A stretch of 62,427 nt of DNA, filler included. It is 8 parts of 8 records of this genome, joined end to end, with 100 filler letters (N's around TTAATTAATTAA, not from the genome) between each part and the next. Parts side by side here need not be neighbours in the genome. Positions count along the whole stretch, not along the records: positions 56,195 to 62,427 come from SRR31156797_46438; 7 more parts are not named here. One strand, 5' to 3'. Below, piece after piece: positions 2,654 through 62,427 of this stretch (position 1 is the first letter of the stretch; every line of letters starts with the position of its first letter). The notes beneath the pieces were generated by a model. The model had not been told where the DNA came from and ran no database searches. It saw only the letters and a list, made by a program, of their open reading frames with translations. Both the position numbers and the translations under genes were made by a program.

Positions 2654-3874
2654 ATGAAAAGTACACAGAATAACGAAATAAATATTGATTATATAGATAT
2701 TATCCCCGGTATCAGAGTGCTGGCAATATTTTTGATTGCATGGTTTCACATCTGGCAGCAGTCATGGCTATCTCCATATTTGCCTATCGGAGAGAAAACA
2801 CTGGATTTTATGTTCCTGCCTCGTGCTGGATATTTATGGGTAGATATGTTTATTATGCTTTCTGCTTTCCAATTATTTCTGCCATACGTCAAAAAAATAA
2901 TGAATGGTGAACAATTCCCTACAGCAGGTCAATTCTACAAAAAGAGGGCTCTGCGTATAATGCCATCTTACTATTTTTGTATATTAATATGCCTGGTAAT
3001 GTCACTGGCACTAAATGAATATCAGCAGGAGCCATTGTTATTGGATCTCTTTACTCACTTGACATTTACCCATAATTTCTTTAAGTTTACATATTTATGG
3101 ACAAACTTAAATGTTGTTTTGTGGACAGTCGCTATTTTGATGCAGTTCTATCTTATATTCCCATTGCTAGTTAGAGCATATAAAAAATATCCTGTAGTTT
3201 CTTTCGCTGTTATGGTGTCTATCGCATTTGCTTTCAGGCACTATTTAGTCAACAGCTCAAAGAGTCCTTCAATGTTTGTCAATCAGCTGCCTGCATTTTT
3301 GGATGTAATAGCCCTTGGGTTCTTTGCAGCATACTTGGTAGTAATCATTAATAAAAAAATCAACTATCAAAAATACAGCACTGGTTTTACACTGATATCT
3401 ATAATGTCATTTTTCTGGATAGCCTACTATATGAAGGAATTATCTGGTGTACTAAACCAAGAATTAATACAAAGATGGCAGGGCGAATACCGCTTCCCTG
3501 TAGCAATTGCATTTATGACACTGATAATCAGTACAGCCTATTCACGATACGGATATCGCCGGATATTCTCCAACAGGGTAATGATTTTCCTAAGCTCAGT
3601 ATCCTATAATTACTATATCTGGCATCAGTACATAGCTGTGCGGATGGTAGAATTCAAGTTTCCTTATTATATATCCGATTTACCTCAGGTGATGGCTGAA
3701 AAGCCTTGGCAGTACACATATACTGCTGCCAGTTTTATAATTCCTCTTATTGTAGCAATAATTGTTACATGGGGTATTGATAAGCAGATGATACCTGCAA
3801 TACAAAAGATAATTAGTATGAGAAACGAAAAAAAATTGAAAACAACAGGTGCTGATATTGGTAATATAAGCTAG
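2654..3874 (+). CDS. Membrane O-acyltransferase (acyltransferase-3/OafA family)
   Basis: About 10 TM segments; motifs GIRVLA..I..FH, VDMFIMLS, FYKKRALRIMPSY, LWTVA...QFYL, SYNYYIWH. Confidence 0.85.
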   Translation: MKSTQNNEINIDYIDIIPGIRVLAIFLIAWFHIWQQSWLSPYLPIGEKTLDFMFLPRAGYLWVDMFIMLSAFQLFLPYVKKIMNGEQFPTAGQFYKKRALRIMPSYYFCILICLVMSLALNEYQQEPLLLDLFTHLTFTHNFFKFTYLWTNLNVVLWTVAILMQFYLIFPLLVRAYKKYPVVSFAVMVSIAFAFRHYLVNSSKSPSMFVNQLPAFLDVIALGFFAAYLVVIINKKINYQKYSTGFTLISIMSFFWIAYYMKELSGVLNQELIQRWQGEYRFPVAIAFMTLIISTAYSRYGYRRIFSNRVMIFLSSVSYNYYIWHQYIAVRMVEFKFPYYISDLPQVMAEKPWQYTYTAASFIIPLIVAIIVTWGIDKQMIPAIQKIISMRNEKKLKTTGADIGNIS

Positions 3875-4040
3875 TGCCTAGTTGGTATTAAGTATTATAT
3901 TAACGTAGGTAATTTAATTATATATATAATGCACGTAACAATATTGTAATAAACCTTAAGAAACACTAGCATATTTATTTCAAATGATATATAATATGTT
4001 TTGGTAACTACGAAATCACTAAGGACGGTAGTAATTTAAT

Positions 4041-5063
4041 ATGTTTAATGGTAAAACTTTACTTATAACAGGCGGAACCGGTTCATTCGGTAACGCTGTA
4101 CTAGATAGATTCTTGGACACTGATATCGGTGAAATAAGAATATTCTCCAGAGACGAAAAAAAACAGCATGATATGCGTAAAAAATATAAGAACAGCAAGA
4201 TTAAGTTCTATATCGGTGACGTAAGAGACATTCAGTCTATTAAAGCTGCAATGAACGGAGTTGACTATGTCTTCCACGCAGCAGCACTGAAGCAGGTTCC
4301 ATCCTGCGAATTCCACCCTATGCAGGCATACAAGACAAACGTCGAAGGTACAGCAAATGTGTTGGAAGTGGCAGTCGATATGGGAGTAAAGAAGATTGTC
4401 TGCCTGTCAACAGACAAAGCAGTCTATCCTATTAATGCAATGGGTATTTCCAAGGCAATGATGGAAAAGGTTGCAAGTGCAATGGCACGTGAAACAGACG
4501 AATCCAAGTGTACAATCTGCTCAACCAGATATGGCAATGTAATGGCTTCCAGAGGAAGCGTTATTCCTCTGTTTGTTAATCAGATAAAAAATGGCGATGA
4601 GCTGACTGTTACAGATCCAAATATGACTAGATTCCTAATGTCGCTTGACGAAGCAGTGGACTTGGTGCTGTTTGCTTTCAAAAATGGTCACAGCGGCGAT
4701 GTCTTTGTTCAAAAAGCCCCTGCTTGTACAATTGAAGTATTGGCACAAGCTGTAAAGGAAGTTTTCAAATCAAATGCGAACATAAAAGTAATAGGTACTC
4801 GCCACGGCGAAAAGCTATATGAAACTTTAGTTACTCGGGAAGATATGGTAAAAGCTCAGGACTTAGGCGATTATTTCCGTATACCGCCTGATAATCGTGA
4901 CCTGAATTATGATAAGTATTTCAAAGAAGGCTCGCAGGAAGTTGCTTCCTTTGAGGATTACCATTCTCACAATACTCAGAGGCTTAATGTAAGCCAAGTA
5001 GTTGAAAAACTATTGGAACTAAAATATATTCAAACTGAATTAGAAATCATGAGCAAAGACTAA
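4041..5063 (+). CDS. wbjB: UDP-GlcNAc 4,6-dehydratase/5-epimerase (WbjB/Cap5E/FnlA type)
   Basis: TGGTGSFG, FSRDEKKQ, HAAALKQVPSCEF, STDKAVYPINAMGISKA, TRYGNVMASRGSV, RHGEKLYETL. Confidence 0.92.
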   Translation: MFNGKTLLITGGTGSFGNAVLDRFLDTDIGEIRIFSRDEKKQHDMRKKYKNSKIKFYIGDVRDIQSIKAAMNGVDYVFHAAALKQVPSCEFHPMQAYKTNVEGTANVLEVAVDMGVKKIVCLSTDKAVYPINAMGISKAMMEKVASAMARETDESKCTICSTRYGNVMASRGSVIPLFVNQIKNGDELTVTDPNMTRFLMSLDEAVDLVLFAFKNGHSGDVFVQKAPACTIEVLAQAVKEVFKSNANIKVIGTRHGEKLYETLVTREDMVKAQDLGDYFRIPPDNRDLNYDKYFKEGSQEVASFEDYHSHNTQRLNVSQVVEKLLELKYIQTELEIMSKD

Positions 5064-5134
5064 TACTCTTTGCTTTTATACAAATAAAGATATAGTAATT
5101 ATCACTTCTACAGGAAGGTACAAGGAAGAAAGTC

Positions 5135-6244
5135 ATGAATATACTAGTTACTGGTGCAAATGGGTTCGTAGGGCGCAATCTGTGTTCTCATTTGAAATTG
5201 ATGGAAAATGTTAATCTCTATGAATTTGACAAGGAGAATACTACTGAGGAATTAAAGACCATGGTAATGGACTCCCAATTTATAATGCATTTTGCAGGAG
5301 TAAACAGACCAAAAGATGAAACTGAATTCTTTGAAGGCAACACCGATTTAACTAAATTAATCATAGAGACTCTTGAATCAAATAATCTGTCAGTACCAAT
5401 TTTATTATCATCCTCTACTCAGGCAACCAGAGATAATGCCTACGGCAAATCAAAGCTGATGGCAGAAAAAGCGGTAATAGATTACGGCATTGATAATGAT
5501 GTGCCGGTATATGTATATAGATTCCCTAATCTTTTCGGTAAATGGTGCAGACCAAATTACAACAGCGTTGTAGCTACGTTCTGTCACAATATTGCAAACG
5601 ACTTACCTATCACAATCAATGCACCAGACGCGCTGATTACATTATCTTATATTGATGACGTAGTTAACGAATGCCTTAATGCAATGGTTGATGATGTTGA
5701 AAAGGATGGCAACTATTGTGTTGTTCGTGAAAAATATGATATTACTTTGCAGGACTTAGCAGACATGATATATTCGTTTAGGGATGTCAGGAAGACTGGA
5801 ATAATACCGGATATGACAAATAGCCTTACAAAATATATGTATTCTACATATTTGTCCTATGTAGATGATGCAAACCACGGATATAAGCCTGAACTTCATA
5901 CTGATGACCGGGGCTGGCTGTTCGAGCTTATCAAATCCCCTAACATTGGTCAGATATTCGTATCAAAGACAAAGCCTGGAATTACTAGAGGTAATCACTA
6001 TCACCATACAAAGGTAGAGAAGTTTACAGTAATTGAAGGAAAAGCATTAATCAGATTAAGGTGTATTGACGGTGATGAAGTCTTGGATTATGAAGTTAAC
6101 GGAGACGATCCTACAATCGTGAATATTCCTCCGGGATATACCCATAATATTTCTAATATCGGCGATACCGATGTACTTACGCTATTCTGGGTGAATGAAA
6201 TATTCAATAAAGATAAACCTGATACAATATATGAGGAAGTATAG
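5135..6244 (+). CDS. wbjC: UDP-2-acetamido-2,6-dideoxy-hexulose reductase with C-terminal cupin (WbjC/Cap5F/FnlB type)
   Basis: TGANGFVG, YGKSK, FGKWCRPNYNSVVATFC, cupin motif RGNHYHHTKVEKF and PPGYTHNI. Confidence 0.92.
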   Translation: MNILVTGANGFVGRNLCSHLKLMENVNLYEFDKENTTEELKTMVMDSQFIMHFAGVNRPKDETEFFEGNTDLTKLIIETLESNNLSVPILLSSSTQATRDNAYGKSKLMAEKAVIDYGIDNDVPVYVYRFPNLFGKWCRPNYNSVVATFCHNIANDLPITINAPDALITLSYIDDVVNECLNAMVDDVEKDGNYCVVREKYDITLQDLADMIYSFRDVRKTGIIPDMTNSLTKYMYSTYLSYVDDANHGYKPELHTDDRGWLFELIKSPNIGQIFVSKTKPGITRGNHYHHTKVEKFTVIEGKALIRLRCIDGDEVLDYEVNGDDPTIVNIPPGYTHNISNIGDTDVLTLFWVNEIFNKDKPDTIYEEV

Positions 6245-6255
6245 GAGCAACACTA

Positions 6256-7383
6256 ATGAGCAAACTTAAGGTAATGACAGTCGTTGGAACCAGGCCCGAA
6301 ATCATCAGATTATCATCAGTAATCAAAGCCTGTGACAAATACTTTGACCACACTTTGGTTCACACTGGTCAAAACTGGGACTATACATTAAATCAAGTAT
6401 TTTTTGATGAATTAGAGCTTCGTGCACCTGACTACTCACTAGGTGCTGTGGGTAAGCACTTAGGCGAAACAGTTGGAAACATTATAGCTAAATCATATGA
6501 AGTAATGCAAAAAGTAAAGCCCGAAGCACTGCTTATACTAGGTGATACCAACTCTGCCCTTGCTGCATATTCAGCAAAAAGACTAAAGATTCCGATTTTT
6601 CATATGGAAGCAGGTAACAGATGCTTTGATCAGAATGTTCCTGAAGAGATTAACAGAAAAGTAGTTGACCATATTTCTGACATCAATCTTTGCTATACAG
6701 AGCATTCTAGGAGATATTTATTATCTGAGGGCGTACAAAAGCAGCATGTATATGTAACTGGTTCTCCTATGCAGGAAGTTCTGACCCTTTATAAAAATAA
6801 AATAGATAATTCAAAAGTTCTAGAGGAATTAGGACTGGAAGAAGATAAATATATTTTGGTATCAGCTCACAGAGAAGAGAACATAGATAATGAGCAGAAT
6901 TTCCTAACTCTGATGAATGCAATCAACTTCGCAGCAGAACAATACCAATTACCTGTTATATATTCTACTCATCCACGTTCTCTGAAAAAAATTCAGGAGC
7001 GAGGATTTGAGTTCCATCCCCTAGTCAGGTCACTAAAGCCATTTGGTTTCTTTGACTACAACAGACTTCAGAAATCCTCCTTTGCTGTTTTATCTGACAG
7101 CGGTACGCTATCTGAGGAATCTGCAATGTTAGGATTTAACGGAATATTAATTAGAACTAGTACAGAGCGTCCGGAAGTTCTGGACAAAGGAACAGTAATA
7201 ATCGGTTCAATCGCTTCCGACTCAATAAAGCAAAGCATTGAACTAGCTAGAGCAATGAAACACAATAACGAAAAAGTTTGCTTGGCACACGATTATGTTG
7301 ATACTAATGTATCAGTAAAAGTTGTAAAAATAATACAATCCTATGTACCAATCATAAATAATATGGTATGGCGCAAAGGTTGA
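6256..7383 (+). CDS. wbjD: Non-hydrolysing UDP-sugar 2-epimerase (WbjD/Cap5G/FnlC type)
   Basis: VGTRPEIIRLS, HTGQN, HMEAGNRCFD, SAHREEN, SDSGT, TERPE; third gene of the FucNAc trio. Confidence 0.92.
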   Translation: MSKLKVMTVVGTRPEIIRLSSVIKACDKYFDHTLVHTGQNWDYTLNQVFFDELELRAPDYSLGAVGKHLGETVGNIIAKSYEVMQKVKPEALLILGDTNSALAAYSAKRLKIPIFHMEAGNRCFDQNVPEEINRKVVDHISDINLCYTEHSRRYLLSEGVQKQHVYVTGSPMQEVLTLYKNKIDNSKVLEELGLEEDKYILVSAHREENIDNEQNFLTLMNAINFAAEQYQLPVIYSTHPRSLKKIQERGFEFHPLVRSLKPFGFFDYNRLQKSSFAVLSDSGTLSEESAMLGFNGILIRTSTERPEVLDKGTVIIGSIASDSIKQSIELARAMKHNNEKVCLAHDYVDTNVSVKVVKIIQSYVPIINNMVWRKG

Positions 7384-7402
7384 TAAGATTGACGGAGTAT
7401 AA

Positions 7403-8497
7403 ATGGCTAGAACCGACAAAAAAGTATTAATAATTGGTGCTCTTGGAGATGGACCTGACGGCATGAGTCAGGCAACCATTGTACTTCGAGATATTTGGCT
7501 TAATGAAGGTGTACCTCTTGAAGTTGTAGATTTCTTTGACAATGGCGGTGCAGGAGTAGGAGTGAGTCCTCTTACAAAGATTAAATCCAGTAAAATCAAC
7601 CAAAAGAAGGCTGACAGGATTATTCCAACAGTAGACAGTGTATATCTGACACCGAAACTATCACCCTTAGGCTTTTTGTCTGTAGTTCCATACATGAAAT
7701 CCTGCTTGAAATACAAGGTTCCTTATACTCTTCACTTTCATGGCAGAGCATTTCAACGCAATTATAAAAAATATCCCTTTTTTAGACCGATTTTTGATAA
7801 GTATATAACCAAATCTCACATAAATATTGCTCTGACTAATAGTCTGCTCAATGAAATTCAGGAATTAGGAATTGGCGGAAGCTGGACAACAGTTGGTAAC
7901 TATTCACAGGATTTTATGATGCTTAAGAGTGATGAAATATCTCAAAAGAAACAATTGTGTTATATTCATCCGATAAAAATCGCATATATGTCAAATATAA
8001 TTGAATCAAAAGGCATTTTTCACGTAATGGAAGCTGTTGGAGGAGACGATAGATTTGCATTAGAAATAGCCGGCAAAGTATTCCCTGATGAAGAAAAAAG
8101 ATTCTACCAACTGCTTAATGAATATAACAATATCAAATTCCTTGGTTTTATCAGCGGAGACGAAAAGCGTGAAATGCTGAAAAGATCAGCGATATTTATA
8201 CTGCCAACACTCTACCCTACAGAAGCTCAGCCTATTAGCTTAATTGAAGCTCTGTGCTTAGGATGTATTATAGTAGCTACCGAACACATTGGTATTATGG
8301 ATACTTTGGGAGAAAGTTATCCCAAAGATTTGTACGTTAAGCAGGATGTAATAAACATACAAAAAAGGCTAAATGATATATACAATAATTACAATAAATA
8401 CAGCGGATACATTTTAAGTAATCTAGAAACCTATCAGAATAAATTCTCTCAATCAAATTATGCTGATAATATATATAATACTTTAGACTTTAAGTAG
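7403..8497 (+). CDS. GT4-family glycosyltransferase
   Basis: LHFHG, SNIIESKG, and E-X7-E motif EAQPISLIEA. Confidence 0.85.
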   Translation: MARTDKKVLIIGALGDGPDGMSQATIVLRDIWLNEGVPLEVVDFFDNGGAGVGVSPLTKIKSSKINQKKADRIIPTVDSVYLTPKLSPLGFLSVVPYMKSCLKYKVPYTLHFHGRAFQRNYKKYPFFRPIFDKYITKSHINIALTNSLLNEIQELGIGGSWTTVGNYSQDFMMLKSDEISQKKQLCYIHPIKIAYMSNIIESKGIFHVMEAVGGDDRFALEIAGKVFPDEEKRFYQLLNEYNNIKFLGFISGDEKREMLKRSAIFILPTLYPTEAQPISLIEALCLGCIIVATEHIGIMDTLGESYPKDLYVKQDVINIQKRLNDIYNNYNKYSGYILSNLETYQNKFSQSNYADNIYNTLDFK

Positions 8498-8689
8498 ATA
8501 CTATTTCACTTCATTCTTTCTTCAATATCTTACACAAATAAAAGCCCTATATATTTCAATATACCAATAATTTCTATATTGATAAATCAAGATTAAATTA
8601 ACTAAAAACACAGTGTTTTACTGCTCCGAATCCCCCTTGACAAGCACGGATTATTAGAAATACATAAAAACCTAAAAAATTGAACAAAA

Positions 8690-8746
8690 TAAGCAAAAAA
8701 AATGTTGACAACAATAATTCATTATGATATTCTATTGAAGCTGTCA
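8690..8746 (+). promoter_or_regulatory. Strong sigma-A promoter at contig end, probably of an rRNA/tRNA operon
   Basis: A-tract UP-like element, TTGACA (8705-8710)-17 nt-TATTCT with extended TG, then AAGCTGTC; the contig ends about 20 nt later. Confidence 0.55.
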
Positions 8747-8754
8747 ACGAAAAC

Positions 8755-8854
8755 NNNNNNNNNNNNNNNNNNNNNNNNNNNNNNNNNNNNNNNNNNNNTT
8801 AATTAATTAANNNNNNNNNNNNNNNNNNNNNNNNNNNNNNNNNNNNNNNNNNNN
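8755..8854. other. Artificial contig spacer
   Basis: N44-TTAATTAATTAA-N44 (stops in all frames); abrupt composition change across it. Confidence 0.99.
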
Positions 8855-9123
8855 TCATTCGCATCTCCATCCCCCCTTTGACCGAGGAAAGGCGAAAAGA
8901 GCTGGCCAAACTGGCCAGAAAAATGGCGGAAGACAATAAGATTTCAATCCGGAACTTGAGGCGGGAAGCCAACGACATGTTCAAGGAGTTGAAAGCCGAA
9001 AAAGAAATCAGCGAAGATGAGCTTTATAAATCCCAGGATGATGTTCAGAAAATTACCGATGAATTCATCAAAAAAATAGACGAAACAACCACCCAAAAAG
9101 AACAGGAGATCATTGAATTCTGA
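8855..9123 (+). CDS. frr: Ribosome recycling factor, C-terminal part
   Basis: [16 protein letters not shown]...[10 protein letters not shown]...ISEDE...VQKITD...KEQEI; lies upstream of uppS. Confidence 0.96.
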
Positions 9124-9126
9124 TAC

Positions 9127-9855
9127 ATGACATCAATCATAAGCAAAGAAAGCCTGCCGAAACATGTGGCCATTATCATGGATGGAAACGGCCGGTGGGC
9201 GGAAAAGCACGCCTTCCCGCGTGTCAGAGGGCATCGAAAGGGAGCGGAATCCGTCAGAACAATCGTCACGCTCTGTCGTAAGCTGGGTATTCCGTGGCTC
9301 ACCCTTTACGCTTTTTCGGAAGAAAACTGGAAAAGGCCTCCCCATGAAGTAAACGCACTCATGAAACTCCTTGGCAGTTTCCTGAAACGCGAATTGAAAG
9401 AAATGAAAGAAAACGGCATCCGTTTGAATGTGATCGGCCGAACCGAAAAGCTTCCCGCCGCCATCAGAGAGATACTTCTGGATACCATCCGACAAACATC
9501 TCATGGCCGTAATATGGTTTTGACCCTTGCGCTCAGTTATGGCGGCAGACAGGAAATACTGGATGCGGCCCGCACCCTTGCCCACAAGGTGAAAAACGGC
9601 GACATGGATCCCGCGGACATCTCGGAAGATCAATTTTCAGGCAGCCTTTACACCAGCGGGATGCCCGATCCGGACCTTGTCATTCGAACCAGCGGCGAAT
9701 ACCGTATCAGCAATTTTCTGCTTTGGCAGATTTCATACAGTGAAATCTACATTACCCCGACCCTGTGGCCTGACTTTGGTGAAGCGGAATTTTTGAAAGC
9801 ACTTTCGGAATACCAAAAAAGGGACAGAAGATTTGGCGCGGTCGCCACAACATAG
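9127..9855 (+). CDS. uppS: Undecaprenyl diphosphate synthase
   Basis: HVAIIMDGNGRWA, YAFSEENWKRP, RTSGEYRISNFLLWQ. Confidence 0.97.
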   Translation: MTSIISKESLPKHVAIIMDGNGRWAEKHAFPRVRGHRKGAESVRTIVTLCRKLGIPWLTLYAFSEENWKRPPHEVNALMKLLGSFLKRELKEMKENGIRLNVIGRTEKLPAAIREILLDTIRQTSHGRNMVLTLALSYGGRQEILDAARTLAHKVKNGDMDPADISEDQFSGSLYTSGMPDPDLVIRTSGEYRISNFLLWQISYSEIYITPTLWPDFGEAEFLKALSEYQKRDRRFGAVATT

Positions 9856-56194: not shown

Positions 56195-56295
56195 ACCACC
56201 TCGCAGCCGTATTCGTCCTGCAGCCAACGCAGGATGACCGATGTGTCCAATCCGCCCGAGTAGGCCAGCACGGCCTTCTTGACTTCGCCTTTCAT
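56195..56295 (-). CDS. argG: Argininosuccinate synthase, N-terminus (truncated; absent from ORF track)
   Basis: Manual translation [33 protein letters not shown]. Confidence 0.93.
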
Positions 56296-56410
56296 GGTTT
56301 TCACGCCTTTGATTTTCTTGGGGACATAAGAGGCGCGCAGTATAGGAAATAACGCGCGCCGGGCAAGCGCCGCATGAACGGACTTTTCGAACGATGGAAA
56401 CCTGAAAAAA

Positions 56411-57538
56411 TCAGCCGCCGGGCGCGGCGTGGTCGTCCTCGATGCCGGCGGCCAGACGAGCCTTGTGCTGGCTCAGGCGTTCGCGTTCGGTTTCCGAGCG
56501 CAACTGCCCGCATGCGGCCATGATATCGCGGCCGCGCGGCACGCGAATCGGCGCCGAATAACCGGCGTCGTTCAGGATCTCGGAAAACCGCTTCATGTCG
56601 GCGGCCTTCGAACACTGATAGGTCGCACCCGGCCAGGGATTGAAGGGGATCAGGTTGAACTTGGCCGGAATGCCCTTGACCAGGCGGGTCAGCGCGTGGG
56701 CGTCGGCCGCCGAGTCGTTGATGCCCTTCAGCATGACATATTCGAACGTGATGCGGCGCGCGTTATCGGCGCCGGGATAGGTGCGGCAGGCTTCCATCAG
56801 GTCGGCCAGCGGGTACTTCTTGTTGATCGGCATGATCACGTCCCGCAGCTCGTCGGTGACGGCGTGCAGGCTGATCGCCAGCTTAACGCCCAATTCCTCG
56901 CCGCAGCGCCTGATCAGCGGCACGACGCCGGAGGTGGACAGGGTGATGCGGCGCTTCGAAATGGCGATGCCTTCAGGATCCATGATAATGCGCAGCGCCT
57001 TGGCCACCGCGTCGTAGTTCATCAGCGGTTCGCCCATGCCCATGACGACGATGTTCGACAACAGCCGCCCGCCCTTAGGCGCCGGCCATTCGCCGCAGGA
57101 ATCGCGCGCCACCATCAACTGACCGACGATTTCGCCGGCGCTCAGGTTGCGGACCAGAAGTTGTCTTCCGGTGTGGCAGAACTTGCAGGTCAGCGTGCAG
57201 CCGACCTGGGTCGAGACGCACAGCGCGCCGCGGTCCTCTTCCGGAATGAACACGCATTCGGCTTCGTGGTTTTGCGCGAACTTGAGCAGCCATTTGCGCG
57301 ACGTGTCGTCGGATATGAGCTCGCGCGTCACCTTGGGCCTATCGACCGTGAAATTTTCGGCCAGGCGGGCCCTGAAATCCTTGGCCAGGGTTGTCATGTC
57401 GGCAAAATCGGTGGCGCCGCGGTGATAGATCCAGTGCCACACCTGCTTGGTGCGGAACGGCTTTTCGCCCATTTCCGCCAGCAGCGCGCCCAGTTCGTCG
57501 CGATCCAGGCCGATCAGGTTGGTTTTTTCCGATGTCAT
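56411..57538 (-). CDS. rlmN: 23S rRNA/tRNA m2A radical SAM methyltransferase
   Basis: [53 protein letters not shown]. Confidence 0.97.
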
Positions 57539-57679
57539 GACGGGAGAGATAGAGCGATTCGCGCCGGTTCGCCAATCAAATCGATGATTTTCGAAAGCAG
57601 CGCGGCGGCCGGGGCGCCATCAGGGAGGAGGCTTGGGGGAGGTTGGCGCCGGCCGGCCGCCGGCTTCGAGTCATCTCGT

Positions 57680-58186
57680 TCAACGGCCTTTCGATTGGCC
57701 GCATTTGGCCGATCTGTAAAAACGGGCGCTGCCGTTGCGGGCCGGCTTGATGCCGCCGACAAGCTCGACGTCGCCGATCATGGTGCGCCCCAATGCCCGG
57801 TTGGCGGCATCGGTCAGCCGTTTTTTCAGATCTTCCGTCTGTATTTGGACGGATTTGCGAAACTTGATCGGATGGCGATGCAGGGTCGTCATGAAGGCGT
57901 CCATGATGCGCGGCGACAGCCAGCAGATCTCGTCGATCTGGACGCCGTCGGCAAGGGACAGCAGCGGCGTTACGGCGGCGGCGCCGCCGCGCCCGTCGGC
58001 TTGCCTGATCGGCGCCATGAAAGCGGAAAGCTGAACCTGGGAAACGGCCGCGCCGGGGCTGGGCGTAACCGCCGACAGGGCCGGCGCCGCGGCGACAACG
58101 ACCAGGGAAAGCCCCAGCAACAGTGCTGCCGCGATTGCCGGTATCGGATTTCGAAGGGTTAGCCGTATCGTCCGTGTCGCCGTCAT
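57680..58186 (-). CDS. Exported hypothetical protein, FliL-like
   Basis: ATG 58186, N-terminal hydrophobic segment, PRIMDAF...LKKRL..AANRALG...DV pattern reminiscent of FliL. Confidence 0.5.
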   Translation of the reverse strand: MTATRTIRLTLRNPIPAIAAALLLGLSLVVVAAAPALSAVTPSPGAAVSQVQLSAFMAPIRQADGRGGAAAVTPLLSLADGVQIDEICWLSPRIMDAFMTTLHRHPIKFRKSVQIQTEDLKKRLTDAANRALGRTMIGDVELVGGIKPARNGSARFYRSAKCGQSKGR

Positions 58187-58480
58187 TTTTCTGGACCGTC
58201 CCTGCCGGTTGCCAAGGTGTGATAACGGCAATACAGGGGCAATCGCCGTGCCAGATCGCCGGGCAGGGACAGTCCGTTGATTTTATTGAGTATCGACCGC
58301 GATCAAGCCGGGCCGCGGCAGGGGGTGGACGGTGATTTTTCGCAGATTGCGACGCAGGTTTGAAAAAACTTTAGGAAAAATGCGGCCTAATTATTACGGT
58401 ATCTACAACAAGCTGTTGTACCGATTGACTCCGATGACGATGTCTGATTCTCTTTGATGATCGATATTGGAGGCCTGCAA

Positions 58481-59002
58481 ATGGTGATTCTGAGCACGAT
58501 AGGATACGAAAAGGCCTCGATCGAAGACTTTCTGGAAACTTTAAAAGTCGCCGGCGTCAACGTTCTCGTCGACGTTCGACAACTCCCAATTTCACGGCGA
58601 AAAGGCTTTTCGAAAAAGAAGCTTGGTTTGTCGTTGGAATCAGTCGGAATAAGATATGTCCATCTTGTTGGTCTGGGCGATCCAAAGGAGGGAAGGATTG
58701 CCGCGAAAGAGGGACGTTACGACGATTTCATTCAAGTATTTACCCAGCATATGAAAACGACGGAAGCCAAAGCGGACCTCCTTGTGGCGGCCGATCTTGC
58801 CGAGTCCGGGCATGTTTGCCTCATGTGTTACGAGCGGGATCACGCTTCCTGCCACCGGAAGTTGTTGGCAGAATCGATTTCGAGTATGATTGGTGCAAGT
58901 ATTCAGCCTTTGGGCATTCGAGAAGGCTTGGCGAAAAATGAACGTAAAACAAGGTCGAGAGAAGACCTTGATACTCGTGAAGGCACTTCCGCACATTGGT
59001 GA
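58481..59002 (+). CDS. DUF488-family protein
   Basis: GGAGG RBS 7 nt before ATG 58481; TIGY, LVDVR..P.S...GF, Y.HL..LG, LMCYE.....CHR. Confidence 0.88.
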   Translation: MVILSTIGYEKASIEDFLETLKVAGVNVLVDVRQLPISRRKGFSKKKLGLSLESVGIRYVHLVGLGDPKEGRIAAKEGRYDDFIQVFTQHMKTTEAKADLLVAADLAESGHVCLMCYERDHASCHRKLLAESISSMIGASIQPLGIREGLAKNERKTRSREDLDTREGTSAHW

Positions 59003-59702
59003 CAAGCATGGTGAAACTGTTTGTTGCGCAGGGGTAACTGAAAACGGTTCTTGGCGACGCCTGTTTCCCGTTGTTTTCAGGTCTCTTGAAACAGAAAAAC
59101 AATTCAAACGATGGCAATGGGTTGAATATGATTGGCGGGTGCCTCGTGACGATAGGCGACCGGAAAGCCGAAGAATTCAGGAAAACTCGATCAATATCCT
59201 TCGGGAAATTCCCAAGAACGAAAGACCCGGGTTTTTAAACCCTTGCGTAGTGCCGACACCGGAAAGAGCAGAGAAAGGCGGAAAAACCCTGGTGCTGGTT
59301 CGACCGGTCGATTCCCACTTCCACTGGAAACCAAAGCCGACCGAAACGATAGAAGACGAGCGCCAAGCGTTTGAGCGTGCCGCTCGGCAGTATTCGTTTT
59401 TCTCCTCAGGCCGCAAAAAGTGGGAGCCATGTCCCTTTAGTTTTCATTTTTCTTATAGACTGGTCGATGGAAAGATACGGAATGCGACCTGTGACGATTG
59501 GGAAACCGCCGCGACTTTCTACAAATATCGAAAGAAATATGGTGAATCCGAAGCGCTACGTGTGATGGACGAGCGATTCAATCAGGACTATCCGAAAAAT
59601 GGGATGGTATTTGCCATGGGAACGCATTCGCGATTCCCGAACACGTGGTTGTTGGTCGGCGTCATACGCCTCGATCCGCTGAATCAATTGTCTCTTATTT
59701 GA
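58938..59702 (+). CDS. Conserved uncharacterised protein, DUF488 partner
   Basis: ATG 58938 overlapping the DUF488 3' end; LILVKALP, ETVCCAG, WRRLFPV, DDRRPES, DWE, FAMGTH. Confidence 0.8.
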   Translation: MNVKQGREKTLILVKALPHIGDKHGETVCCAGVTENGSWRRLFPVVFRSLETEKQFKRWQWVEYDWRVPRDDRRPESRRIQENSINILREIPKNERPGFLNPCVVPTPERAEKGGKTLVLVRPVDSHFHWKPKPTETIEDERQAFERAARQYSFFSSGRKKWEPCPFSFHFSYRLVDGKIRNATCDDWETAATFYKYRKKYGESEALRVMDERFNQDYPKNGMVFAMGTHSRFPNTWLLVGVIRLDPLNQLSLI

Positions 59703-59929
59703 GAAGCTTGACGAAACCGAAAATTGACTGAACTAACAACAAAATCCGCGAGTTCAGCAGTATCCATATGCCCTATACGTGTCCATTCCTCTGGTCCGTT
59801 TGGAAGTTCACATTCCGCTGGCTCTCTGTATCCATAGATATCACAACCTTCGGCCTTCCAAGGGTAGTCAGTCCAAACCGGGATACCCTTGTAGATATAC
59901 ACTTTTTTGAATTTTGGATAGTTGCTCAT
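59684..59929 (-). CDS. Small hypothetical protein (81 aa)
   Basis: AAGGAGG RBS 8 nt before ATG 59929; convergent, 19-nt tail overlap with the partner gene. Confidence 0.6.
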   Translation of the reverse strand: MSNYPKFKKVYIYKGIPVWTDYPWKAEGCDIYGYREPAECELPNGPEEWTRIGHMDTAELADFVVSSVNFRFRQASQIRDN

Positions 59930-60157
59930 GACAGAGTCCTCCTTAGAAAATAACTCTTGAGGACTCAACTGCTTCGCAGAATCTTGCCAACTTGTTCCGA
60001 ACAAAACAACGGAAACGAAACAAGAACATCAAGAAAAAACATATTGCAATGCAGATTATTTGTGGAAATCACTCTTAATAAATGGCGGAATTTACTGAGA
60101 TAACTAATATCCCGGCCAATACGAACTATCTCTCATAAGGTTGTTCATGAGACTAGT

Positions 60158-60679
60158 TCATTTCACCTTGCAGGCCTTCGAGATCGCCGCGTAGGCCGCG
60201 GTGAAACCTTTCAGGGAATAGGTATCGGTGGTCAGCGTGCCGCGCGACGAGGTGCCCTTGACGATCAGCGTGCTTCCCGCCTTCATGGCGGCGACCAGGG
60301 CGCGGTCGGTCTCGATGTCCCGCGCCCAGGAAAATTCGTTGTCGGTGAACAGCTTGAAGGGCTGGTTGCTGTCGATGCGTACTTCCGTGTCGCTTCCCTG
60401 CTGATATGTATAACCGGCGCGAACGCTGACCTCGCCGAGGGTTTTTTCGGCCGGCCGGTGGGTGACCATGATGTAGGTGTCGCCGCGTTGGGTGTACTTG
60501 CCTTCCGATTTTTCCGGCAGGCTGGCCATGTAACAAAGCGGCTTGCCGTTCTCGGTATCGGCGAAGGCGTTCCAGTCGCCGAATTTGTCGATAAAACCCT
60601 TGTTCTGGGCGACGGTCGAACCGGCCCCGGCAAGGAGCAGGGCGGCGGCAATCAGGGGAAAGCGGATAGAACGTTTCAT
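60158..60679 (-). CDS. Invasion-associated locus B (IalB) family periplasmic protein
   Basis: ATG 60679, signal peptide, FGDW...CY, AMKAGSTL.VKGTSSRGT.TTDTYSLKGFTAA, terminal Cys. Confidence 0.85.
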   Translation of the reverse strand: MKRSIRFPLIAAALLLAGAGSTVAQNKGFIDKFGDWNAFADTENGKPLCYMASLPEKSEGKYTQRGDTYIMVTHRPAEKTLGEVSVRAGYTYQQGSDTEVRIDSNQPFKLFTDNEFSWARDIETDRALVAAMKAGSTLIVKGTSSRGTLTTDTYSLKGFTAAYAAISKACKVK

Positions 60680-61000
60680 GGACTCATAGATACTGATGCA
60701 AAAGCCGCTTGCCAAGTCCCGAAAAGAGCAAACCGACGCGAACTTTTTTGAACTTTTCGAAACGCCGGCCGGCACTTATTCGACGGCTTTTCCGACCCGG
60801 TTGACCTTCTTGCAAGGGTTGTATATTAACCGTCGCAGGTTCCAGGCACCTGCCGCTCGCAGCTTTTCATGTCTCGGTGAAGTCTTGGCTTAGACACCCT
60901 GTCCTCTCCACGCATTTCGCGCGGTTGGCAATGCGAGCGCCCATCCCCTTCCGGGCTTTGCCCGGATCTACTGCGGAATGCCCGACCTGAGGAGACCGGG

Positions 61001-62386
61001 ATGTCGACCGGCAACACGCCTTCGAACGCCTTTACACACGATCCGCTGGGTACCGTTTTCGCCAGGACGGCGCCGCCGATCATCTTCGTGATGGCCATGA
61101 ACGGTCTGCTGACCGTCGTCGATGCCGTTTTCCTGGGCCTGTTCGTCGGGCCGCAGGCGGTCGGCGCCGTTACCCTGATGTTCCCGCTTTATATGTTCGT
61201 CGCGGCGTTGGCGACGCTGGTGGCGAGCGGCATGTCGAGCCTGATCGCGCGGCATCTGGGGGCCGGGCGTTTCGATGATGCGCGGGCCGTTTTTGCCGGC
61301 GCCCACGGGCTGGCGCTGACCTTCGCGATCGCCTTCATTTTGTTGTTCCTGGCAATCGGGCAGCAACTGGTTCTGTTGGTTGCCAACGGTTCGGCGCCAC
61401 TTGCCACGATGGGTTATACCTATCTGGCCATTACCGTGCTGTTTTCGCCCCTGCTTTTTGTGTTGTCGGTCAATTCCGACGCCCTGCGCAACGAGGGCCG
61501 GGTTGGGTTCATGGCGGCGATGAGCCTGCTGGTATCGATCGCCAATATCGCCTTCAACTATGTGCTGATCGCCGTGATGGGGTGGGGCGTTGCCGGCTCC
61601 GCCTACGGTACCGTGATGGCGCAGGCCCTGGCCCTGGCCATCATCCTCGCTTTTCGTCTGCGCGGCGGTACCGAACTCAGGCCAAGCGCCCTTTTGCGGC
61701 ACAATCCGGTCACGGGCTGGCCGCGCATCCTGGCGCTCGGCGCGCCGCAGAGCCTGAACTTCATCGGCATCGCGCTCGGATCGGCCGCCATCATCGCGGC
61801 CGTTCAGATGACGGCCGGCGAAAGCTACGAGACGACGGTCACGGCCTACGGCATCGTCACCCGCATCATGACCTTCGTTTACCTGCCGCTGATGGGGCTT
61901 TCGCGGGCCTTGCAGTCGATCGTCGGCAACAACTACGGAGCCGAGCTGTGGCGCCGGTCCAACGACAGCCTGCGGCTGGGAATGGTCATCGCGCTGGTCT
62001 ATTGCCTGGTTGCCGAGGTCGTACTGATCGGCTTCGCACGATCGATCGGTTTGATCTTCGTCGAAAACGGCGAAGTGGCCGGCGAGGTGGCGCGGATCAT
62101 GCCGGTCCTGGTGGCCATGTACTTCGCCGTCGGGCCGATGATGATGATCGCGACCTATTTCCAGGCGATCGGCGATGCGACGCGGGCCGCCGTGCTCAGC
62201 CTGGCCAAGCCCTATGCCTTCGCCATTCCGCTGACCTTCCTGCTGTCCTTCCTTATCGGCGAACCGGGCATCTGGCTGGCCAATCCCGTGGCCGAAGTCC
62301 TGCTGCTCGGGCTGACGGCGGCGGTACTGATGGGAATGGCGCGGTTCGGCGCGCTGCGCTGGGGGCTGTTCAAGGCGGACGCTTAG
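61001..62386 (+). CDS. MATE-family efflux transporter
   Basis: About 12 TM segments with two-fold repeat, TM1 Asp (TVVDAVF), LRNEG, GVAGSAYGT, GNNYGA. Confidence 0.92.
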   Translation: MSTGNTPSNAFTHDPLGTVFARTAPPIIFVMAMNGLLTVVDAVFLGLFVGPQAVGAVTLMFPLYMFVAALATLVASGMSSLIARHLGAGRFDDARAVFAGAHGLALTFAIAFILLFLAIGQQLVLLVANGSAPLATMGYTYLAITVLFSPLLFVLSVNSDALRNEGRVGFMAAMSLLVSIANIAFNYVLIAVMGWGVAGSAYGTVMAQALALAIILAFRLRGGTELRPSALLRHNPVTGWPRILALGAPQSLNFIGIALGSAAIIAAVQMTAGESYETTVTAYGIVTRIMTFVYLPLMGLSRALQSIVGNNYGAELWRRSNDSLRLGMVIALVYCLVAEVVLIGFARSIGLIFVENGEVAGEVARIMPVLVAMYFAVGPMMMIATYFQAIGDATRAAVLSLAKPYAFAIPLTFLLSFLIGEPGIWLANPVAEVLLLGLTAAVLMGMARFGALRWGLFKADA

Positions 62387-62427
62387 GCGCCGCCGGTCTA
62401 GAGCGTAATTCGATCATCTGGAATCGA

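Follow-up and report, generated by a model that had tools for sequence, protein, structure and literature searches.

We analysed a window of 62,427 nucleotides made up of eight metagenome contigs joined end to end. The last of these contigs (positions 56195-62427, 6.2 kb) carries a compact cassette of low guanine-cytosine (GC) content that encodes a DUF488 protein and an overlapping partner protein. The cassette is 1791 nt long (58369-60159) and has a GC content of 0.466, compared with 0.623 on its left (56195-58368) and 0.619 on its right (60160-62427). The DUF488 gene (58481-59002, + strand) encodes 173 amino acids (aa) and matches the Pfam family PF04343 at 4.9e-31. The second gene (58938-59702, +) encodes a 254-aa member of the PDC-M19B family (2.4e-38), referred to here as the partner. 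Its start lies inside the DUF488 gene, and the 65 nt shared by the two genes (58938-59002, +) are read in different frames. An orphan open reading frame (ORF) of 81 aa (59684-59929, - strand) converges on the pair and overlaps the 3' end of the partner gene by 19 nt. The DUF488 and partner genes face in the opposite direction to ialB, a 183-aa ORF, rlmN and a fragment of argG, which are all on the - strand. A first-pass annotation of this DNA had described an AT-rich insert at 58340-60155 with this orientation, the same 65-nt overlap and a convergent 81-aa gene. The gene arrangement and the low GC are as it described them, while the borders have been refined to those given above.

Borders and origin of the cassette

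The cassette is horizontally acquired, strain-variable DNA in a marine bacterium, and it is absent from a near-identical strain. Contigs of three public runs were aligned to the whole 6.2-kb contig. One run, a seawater metagenome of another study (X2), contains a strain whose flanks are approximately 99% identical. That this strain lacks the cassette is evident because a single 478-nt contig (X2 record 10) jumps from 58368 to 60160. It follows 58020-58368 with 4 differences, passes through 31 other letters, and resumes with 98 letters from 60160. There is no X2 cover over 58483-60146 despite covered flanks. The empty site places the cassette borders between 58368 and 58369 and between 60159 and 60160, with the right border at the stop codon of ialB. 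The change from 31 to 1791 bases suggests that a variable spacer lying between conserved flanks has been swapped. Among other alphaproteobacterial rlmN loci (65-75% RlmN identity), ialB lies 13-220 nt upstream of rlmN in 13 of 16, and the DUF488-partner pair is absent from all 20 fetched rlmN loci of relatives. Since near-identical DNA has an empty site, and since ialB adjoins rlmN in most of these relatives, the cassette is foreign DNA that was recently gained or lost. This agrees with the foreign origin first proposed for the insert, for which an empty-site comparison had been suggested.

The coding composition differs in the same direction as the overall GC content. GC at third codon positions (GC3) is 0.50 for both DUF488 and partner and 0.37 for the 81-aa ORF; for rlmN, the 183-aa ORF, ialB and a MATE transporter gene it is 0.75-0.84. 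The cassette borders show neither flanking direct repeats nor terminal inverted repeats of a convincing kind. One 28-nt inverted pair, at 58004 and 60272, falls inside both flanking genes and was dismissed as a chance occurrence. As previously noted, there is no integrase or transposase among the scanned ORFs of the 6.2-kb contig. A promoter and terminator scan of 58200-60250 returned counts at or below the shuffled expectation.

The native flanks are GC-rich. On the right, ialB (60158-60700, -) belongs to the IalB family (PF06776, 5.1e-16), and its stop codon abuts the cassette. On the left is the GC-rich 183-aa ORF (57680-58231, -), which has no family match and begins with a hydrophobic stretch. 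It is followed by rlmN (56411-57538, -; RlmN_N 1.7e-22, Radical_SAM 5.7e-16), the native anchor used for finding relatives, the closest of which has an RlmN 75% identical to that of the window. Beyond rlmN lies the start of argG as a fragment (-), and the MATE transporter gene (+) is a further flanking gene of the same contig. The insert had been placed between ialB and rlmN-argG; these flanks are correct, with the amendment that the 183-aa ORF stands between the insert and rlmN. The 183-aa ORF was not found in the 20 fetched rlmN loci of relatives and is also present in the cassette-less strain (X2 records 9 and 10 cover 57758-58368). Possibly this ORF entered the same spot in an earlier, lineage-specific insertion.

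Features on different segments of the window need not share one organism. The joints between contigs consist of two 44-N runs around the 12-base linker TTAATTAATTAA, with N runs at 8755, 24578, 30345, 36477, 42313, 47864 and 56095. GC contents of about 0.35, 0.50 and 0.62 are found among the contigs, and the window is not one genome stretch.

Linkage and spread of the pair

DUF488 and the partner form a conserved unit: the two genes are neighbours with very few exceptions, overlap in most cases and are fused in a few. Linkage was examined in the best 80 genome loci, 80 metagenome loci and 37 loci from the viral database IMG/VR. The partner is immediately preceded by a DUF488 gene on the same strand in 79/80, 74/80 and 37/37 of these sets, respectively, and the six remaining metagenome loci end less than 160 nt upstream of the partner. 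Of 151 pairs taken from other loci, 118 have a DUF488 stop codon that falls past the first aligned codon of the partner. In-frame fusions of the two proteins occur at L005 (5557-6768, 404 aa) and in P0176 (409 aa), but are rare (1/152 loci), and no fused form of at least 446 aa was found in the search. In P0188, DUF488 is joined to the C-terminal half of the partner only. These three fusions could be real or could reflect indel or frameshift errors in overlapping genes. The exception among the 80 genome loci is a solo partner (L024, 5228-7248), which has no DUF488 gene and sits beside a serine recombinase.

A more distant clade of the family (23-29% identity) shows a different gene order. The partner gene is convergent with the DUF488 gene in 6 of 8 annotated regions examined, and the carriers of this arrangement are the Gordonia phage Eviarto and plasmids of Rhizobium, Pseudomonas, Streptomyces, Burkholderia and Arthrobacter. 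On plasmids of Calothrix and Sulfolobus, an unassigned small gene occupies the position where others have the convergent DUF488. The distant plasmid and Eviarto members match the same PDC-M19 profiles as the window pair. A joint function is strongly supported because the linkage between DUF488 and partner outlasts this change of gene order. The earlier proposal of a two-gene unit, with a co-occurrence count as its check, is thus upheld. Co-folding of DUF488 and partner gave ipSAE scores of 0.08 and 0.09 (mark 0.34) in runs that had no controls, which speaks neither for nor against binding.

The family is widespread. A word-indexed search returned 681 partner proteins at E <= 0.001, and at 50% identity there are 2053 clusters at the same threshold, 1165 of them at 1e-10 or better. 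Two peptide patterns identified carriers in 395 species genomes. An alignment scan located at least 502 carrier stretches in metagenomes, where a single-protein scan had found no close relatives. Carriers among mobile elements comprise 26 plasmid records (13 of them conjugative), 7 phage records (5 Gordonia phages) and 37 IMG/VR contigs. The module is carried by islets in chromosomes, by prophages and by plasmids, including archaeal ones. The convergent 81-aa ORF is not part of it: it stands beside the pair in 0/80 genome, 0/80 metagenome and 0/37 viral loci. An AAGGAGG Shine-Dalgarno sequence is positioned 8 nt before its ATG. It has no family match in Pfam, PADLOC, NCBIfam or PHROG profile scans and no homologue at E <= 0.01, and its best Atlas score is 0.82. 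Judged by these searches, this ORF appears to be incidental cargo of the present cassette only, which limits the earlier listing of it among the insert's genes.

The chromosomal context of the pair was assessed in 35 genome loci, with two ORFs on each side (140 ORFs). Phage-type DNA methyltransferases stand beside the pair in 4 of these loci, and in other hosts the GC3 of the pair is often below that of its surroundings. In three Parvibaculaceae genomes (L045, L047 and L058; about 3850-9150) the pair occupies the same spot after MsrA and TauE, with ThiC next in L045 and L058; the module can persist vertically after acquisition, as these three genomes illustrate. For the viral context, 120 ORFs from 34 of the 37 loci were scanned. 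The two ORFs upstream include a ParB-like DNA methyltransferase in 22/34 viral loci and a large serine integrase in 4/34. A phrog_10315 protein is encoded directly downstream on the opposite strand in nine viral loci (L193, L196, L198, L209, L211, L212, L216, L217 and L219), and small proteins of phrog_4276 or phrog_14596 recur near the pair. These three families may be further genes associated with phage versions of the pair.

In phage Eviarto, the partner homologue (gene 43) and the immunity repressor (gene 44) share a strand, with the repressor first. The convergent DUF488 is gene 42, and the integrase is three genes away. This arrangement occurs in 7 records of 5 Gordonia phages. On plasmid pRL8, a UzuA-like gene adjoins the pair. 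Overall, the module is mobile and is located where accessory conflict genes sit, and no enrichment in classical defence islands is seen. Of the earlier suggestion that DUF488 often sits in mobile or conflict regions, the mobile part is borne out by prophages and plasmids, and an enrichment near defence genes was not seen.

Predicted folds of the two proteins

The DUF488 protein is a full-length member of its family by profile comparison. Its match to PF04343 scores 108.3 bits (gathering cut-off 22.2) and covers profile positions 1-120 of 121, and it also matches PF22751 (2e-10). The match to profile PDC-M19A (1.8e-33) covers only positions 150-286 of 294, with the N-terminal part missing. The motifs TIGYE, DVR, SRR, GDPK, C-x-E and CHR (the last two forming C-x-E-x5-CHR) are invariant in 36 aligned DUF488 proteins including that of the window. 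Invariant residues are T6, G8, Y9, E10, D31, R33, S38, R39, G42, K45, Y59, H61, G66, P68, G71, R72, C116, E118, C124, H125 and R126. The C-terminal tails of DUF488 proteins (alignment columns about 160-175) finish with a recurring motif resembling E-G-x-[AS]-A, encoded where the partner start overlaps. This motif could reflect a constraint of the overlapping frame, or could be a docking peptide.

The AlphaFold2 (AF2) model of DUF488 has a mean confidence (pLDDT) of 91.6. With an exhaustive structural aligner, its top 50 matches are mostly Cys-dependent protein tyrosine phosphatases (PTP) and dual-specificity phosphatases (DSP), including RNA 5'-phosphatases, at Z 8.9-6.3. The modelled layout resembles that of Cys-dependent PTP-fold phosphatases, with the invariant C116 and C124-H125-R126 on a strand-loop-helix element. 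We accordingly describe DUF488 as a predicted Cys-dependent enzyme of phosphatase fold. Searches of solved-structure sequences with the DUF488 protein and its profile gave nothing meaningful, and no experimentally shown function for the large DUF488 family was found in the literature. Burroughs and Aravind reportedly assigned DUF488, in 2023, to a RapZ-C/DUF488/DUF4326 clade that lies within the rhodanese-phosphatase superfamily, and are said to have predicted DNA-end processing for enzymes of the DUF488 clade. The structural matches of the present model are in accord with this.

The partner matches profile PDC-M19B over nearly its whole length (positions 3-267 of 269) and phrog_25907 at 7.5e-27. 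Pfam and NCBIfam hold no family for it, and sequence searches of the PDB with the partner and its profile returned nothing meaningful. Across 34 relatives, the motifs ETVCCAG, WRR.FP, D.R.ES, DWE and GTHS show little or no variation. In the AF2 model (pLDDT 87.8), residues 1 to about 90 form a five-stranded oligonucleotide/oligosaccharide-binding (OB) barrel, an assignment made by fold resemblance, and many Trp, Arg, Tyr and Phe residues of this domain are invariant. Residues 1-102 match RecO (Z 9.4, 88 residues aligned, root-mean-square deviation 3.7), PriB (9.0), TEBP-alpha (9.0) and many SSB and RPA domains. Foldseek with the whole partner retrieved multi-OB proteins, namely CST, TEBP and RPA70 from the PDB at E 3.6e-5 to 5e-4 and the baculovirus protein LEF-3 at 1.5e-4, with TM-scores of approximately 0.3. 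The C-terminal half (about 105-254) has long helices in the model and a conserved D-W-E motif, and the OB assignment is limited to the N-terminus. A Zn or Fe-S site formed by C29, C30, C165 and C185 was considered and dropped, because conservation of these cysteines does not extend to the wider family.

Because an OB fold is combined with invariant aromatic and basic residues, we infer that the partner would bind single-stranded nucleic acid. The models and alignments fit what the first-pass annotation had anticipated of the two proteins. The DUF488 motif set is intact and its model is phosphatase-like with a candidate Cys-based site; the partner motifs listed there recur across the family, and its first 90 residues resemble OB folds of the type that binds single-stranded DNA (ssDNA).

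Proposed function and comparison with known systems

Our preferred reading, to which we give about an even chance, is that the cassette carries one copy of a widespread, self-contained DUF488 and OB-fold module that takes part in conflicts with phages or other mobile elements. Both proteins would be made together through translational coupling. The partner would recognise single-stranded nucleic acid or a free end, for instance phage or plasmid DNA that has been injected or is replicating, or an end that is damaged. DUF488 would then remove or transfer a terminal phosphate or sugar-phosphate group on the substrate held by the partner, and this end modification would block replication, ligation or packaging of that substrate. 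The likeliest role for such a reaction would be host defence or prophage-encoded exclusion. Binding, chemistry, target and phenotype are all put forward here as a proposal consistent with the folds and contexts. A conflict role is suggested by the PDC-M19 match, by the repressor and integrase setting in Eviarto, and by the neighbouring methyltransferases, ThsB, PD-Lambda-2_A and UzuA-like genes.

Several observations weigh against this reading. Tetrapyrrole/diphthine methylase N-domains match the DUF488 model equally well (Z 9.4-8.8, compared with 8.9-8.2 for phosphatases). The fold matches of this model are middling, and Foldseek gave no match for it below 0.01 (best E 0.011). Beyond binding, the partner may have catalytic activity of its own, because D72, R74, E76, S77 and D187-W188-E189 are the best-conserved polar residues in the wider family. 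Neighbours in the 35 genome loci are mostly housekeeping genes (PGI/MutL, NusA/RimP, FtsH/FolP/GlmM and TauE/ThiC), and a specific defence neighbour (E <= 1e-10, within two genes) is present in only 2/35, namely ThsB at L028 and PD-Lambda-2_A at L056. In viral loci, a small terminase subunit is found among the two downstream ORFs in 7/34, which would also fit a phage-intrinsic role. We found no publication on PDC-M19 and no printed test of it. We also found no experimental work on DUF488 with this partner, in a DUF488 literature represented mainly by titles and abstracts, in line with the earlier statement that none was known. Two other candidates of the same catalogue, PDC-M63 and PDC-S04, were inactive when tested, according to PMC12409345.

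The possible catalytic role of the partner leads to a bolder version of the conflict role, which we put forward tentatively. The pair could be an autonomous immune module of a new mechanistic type, in which the partner is an OB enzyme or sensor (D72, E76, D187, E189) acting on ssDNA ends. DUF488 would add or remove a terminal phosphate or nucleotide-derived group, and invading ends would be marked or disabled. The whole would be a widespread cassette of less than 2 kb, shared among bacteria, archaea, temperate phages and plasmids, that moves from one site between core genes to another without its own recombinase.

An accessory module for healing nucleic-acid ends, with no immune role, would draw on the same folds and is unlikely, if not strongly so. 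Here the OB protein would find gaps or breaks, DUF488 would clear ends blocked by, for example, 3'-phosphates or adducts, and the cell or element would be better able to survive damage to its DNA or RNA. The best OB match, RecO, is a repair mediator. Most chromosomal copies lie between housekeeping genes, some of them by MutL, RecG or a Suv3-like helicase. No enrichment in defence islands is seen for the pair, and its stable retention at the TauE locus in the three Parvibaculaceae genomes is suggestive. However, the module differs between near-identical strains and is foreign in composition in many hosts. Its carriers include conjugative plasmids and also prophages, in which it adjoins genes for immunity, integration and methylases, and by PADLOC construction it is embedded in restriction-modification (RM), BREX or DISARM loci somewhere in RefSeq. 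Conflict genes are favoured over core repair because these four properties are typical of the former.

The preferred conflict role also has to be weighed against functions that serve the mobile element itself. These include processing or protection of phage genome ends at packaging, plasmid establishment and counter-defence, with chromosomal cassettes as remnants or hitch-hikers. The pair's presence in 37 IMG/VR loci and 26 plasmid records, half of them conjugative, points in this direction, as do the ParB-like methyltransferase before it and the terminase small subunit within the next two ORFs in the viral counts given above. Against this, there is no phage or plasmid gene within two ORFs here or in most of the 35 genome loci, and the cassette is a 1.8-kb unit with clean borders. 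The Eviarto pair is located in the lysogeny-control region, with its partner gene co-directional with the repressor, and lies outside the packaging module. We consider an element-serving function rather improbable on this balance.

A toxin-antitoxin-like addiction pair that stabilises mobile DNA is very unlikely. The unit is compact, comprises two genes that overlap or converge with overlapping 3' ends, and occurs on plasmids and prophages, and a solo partner sits beside a recombinase. Yet neither protein matches a known toxin or antitoxin family, and both have the size of enzymes or binders, whereas antitoxins are usually small. That the two proteins also occur naturally fused, and that the pair persists at one locus in three Parvibaculaceae genomes, likewise speaks against addiction. 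Finally, an assembly chimera, in which foreign reads were misjoined into an alphaproteobacterial contig, might be suspected in a window stitched from metagenome contigs of very different GC, with an insert GC (0.47) that resembles other window contigs, but it is so improbable that it can be set aside: an independent Logan assembly of the likely source run, and hence of the same sample, crosses both junctions in one 5018-nt contig (57410-62427) with 0 differences and an even depth of 54.6, the empty site of another study breaks exactly at the compositional borders, and both flanks belong to one syntenic ialB-rlmN neighbourhood.

The partner family comprises at least 2053 clusters at 50% identity and has no Pfam entry. 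To this family the locus adds two near-identical strains that naturally differ in the presence of the cassette, with borders exact to the base, and it presents the module as a self-contained cassette of less than 2 kb, together with a map of its travel. The cassette is a small, clean construct with clear mutable residues, suited to deciding whether PDC-M19 truly functions in defence and to finding the reaction that DUF488 carries out at nucleic-acid ends. Should the module prove to be only a repair accessory or phage-intrinsic, a role would still be gained for two large uncharacterised families.

Comparison with known enzymes and systems places the pair as follows. The DUF488 model aligns over residues 1 to approximately 140 with the DSP domain of laforin (Z 8.9), a Sulfolobus PTP (8.5), PRL (8.4) and KAP (8.2), and further phosphatase-fold matches are DUF442 (7.8), baculovirus RNA 5'-phosphatase (7.4) and PIR1 (6.9). 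It differs in having the motif C-x-E-x5-C-H-R in place of the canonical C-x5-R, and has no sequence match to solved structures. The N-terminal 90-100 residues of the partner model superpose on ssDNA-binding OB proteins (RPA70, TEBP-alpha, CST, LEF-3, the RecO N-domain and SSB/PriB) at Z 9.4-7.4. Identity to these proteins is 4-13% with no family-level match, and the C-terminal helices with D-W-E are untypical of plain SSBs. Actinobacteriophages reportedly carry prophage-expressed defence genes beside their immunity repressors as a general pattern (Dedrick and colleagues in 2017 and Montgomery and colleagues in 2019). The Eviarto partner homologue, being beside the immunity repressor, has a similar position; no defence phenotype of Eviarto-type genes was reported in the literature searched.

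Among catalogued systems, the pair corresponds by profile matches to the unvalidated PADLOC candidate PDC-M19, and it is not the unrecognised system that it was first taken for. Matches to the A and B profiles are encoded adjacently, which is the PDC-M19 definition. The likeness extends to both proteins; the differences are that the window DUF488 is without the N-terminal part of PDC-M19A and that no RM, BREX or DISARM locus surrounds the window pair. As described in their source, the phage defence candidates (PDCs) are a set of 145, collected from genes that lie within BREX, DISARM or type I RM loci and untested there, and DUF488 goes unmentioned in its main text (10.1101/2024.01.29.577857). 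Four of eight other PDCs were active in one study. Among validated defence and toxin-antitoxin profiles there is no match to the window proteins; PADLOC hits are only to the PDC-M19 and PDC-M45 candidates, and NCBIfam has none.

PDC-M45, which contains DuOB (PF22557), is the other close comparison. It resembles the pair in having an OB-containing protein encoded beside DUF488 enzymes, and differs in gene order and in the number of DUF488 genes. An example at L105 (238-3240, G215) has DuOB (PDC-M45A, 2.6e-66) followed by PDC-M45B and PDC-M45C, both DUF488 proteins, and is present in only 1/301 genomes. A 414-aa neighbour at this locus weakly matches profiles associated with prokaryotic Argonaute (pAgo; 1.5e-17). 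Membership of the partner in DuOB was rejected, as the partner has no match to PF22557 (cut-off 27 bits) at E <= 0.1. Among the 34 relatives there is one match, at E = 0.073, and two distant relatives reach E about 0.002 with 18.6-18.7 bits, below the cut-off. Alignment by hhalign to the single DuOB sequence from L105 gave probabilities of 0.2 (A1) and 0.1 (A3), and an Atlas feature score of 0.84 to the DuOB cluster is a lead only. Two genome loci have an extra DUF488 paralogue directly upstream of the pair (L002, 4936-5532, PDC-M45B 2.2e-52; L007, 4927-5367), forming a three-gene variant that bridges PDC-M19 and PDC-M45.

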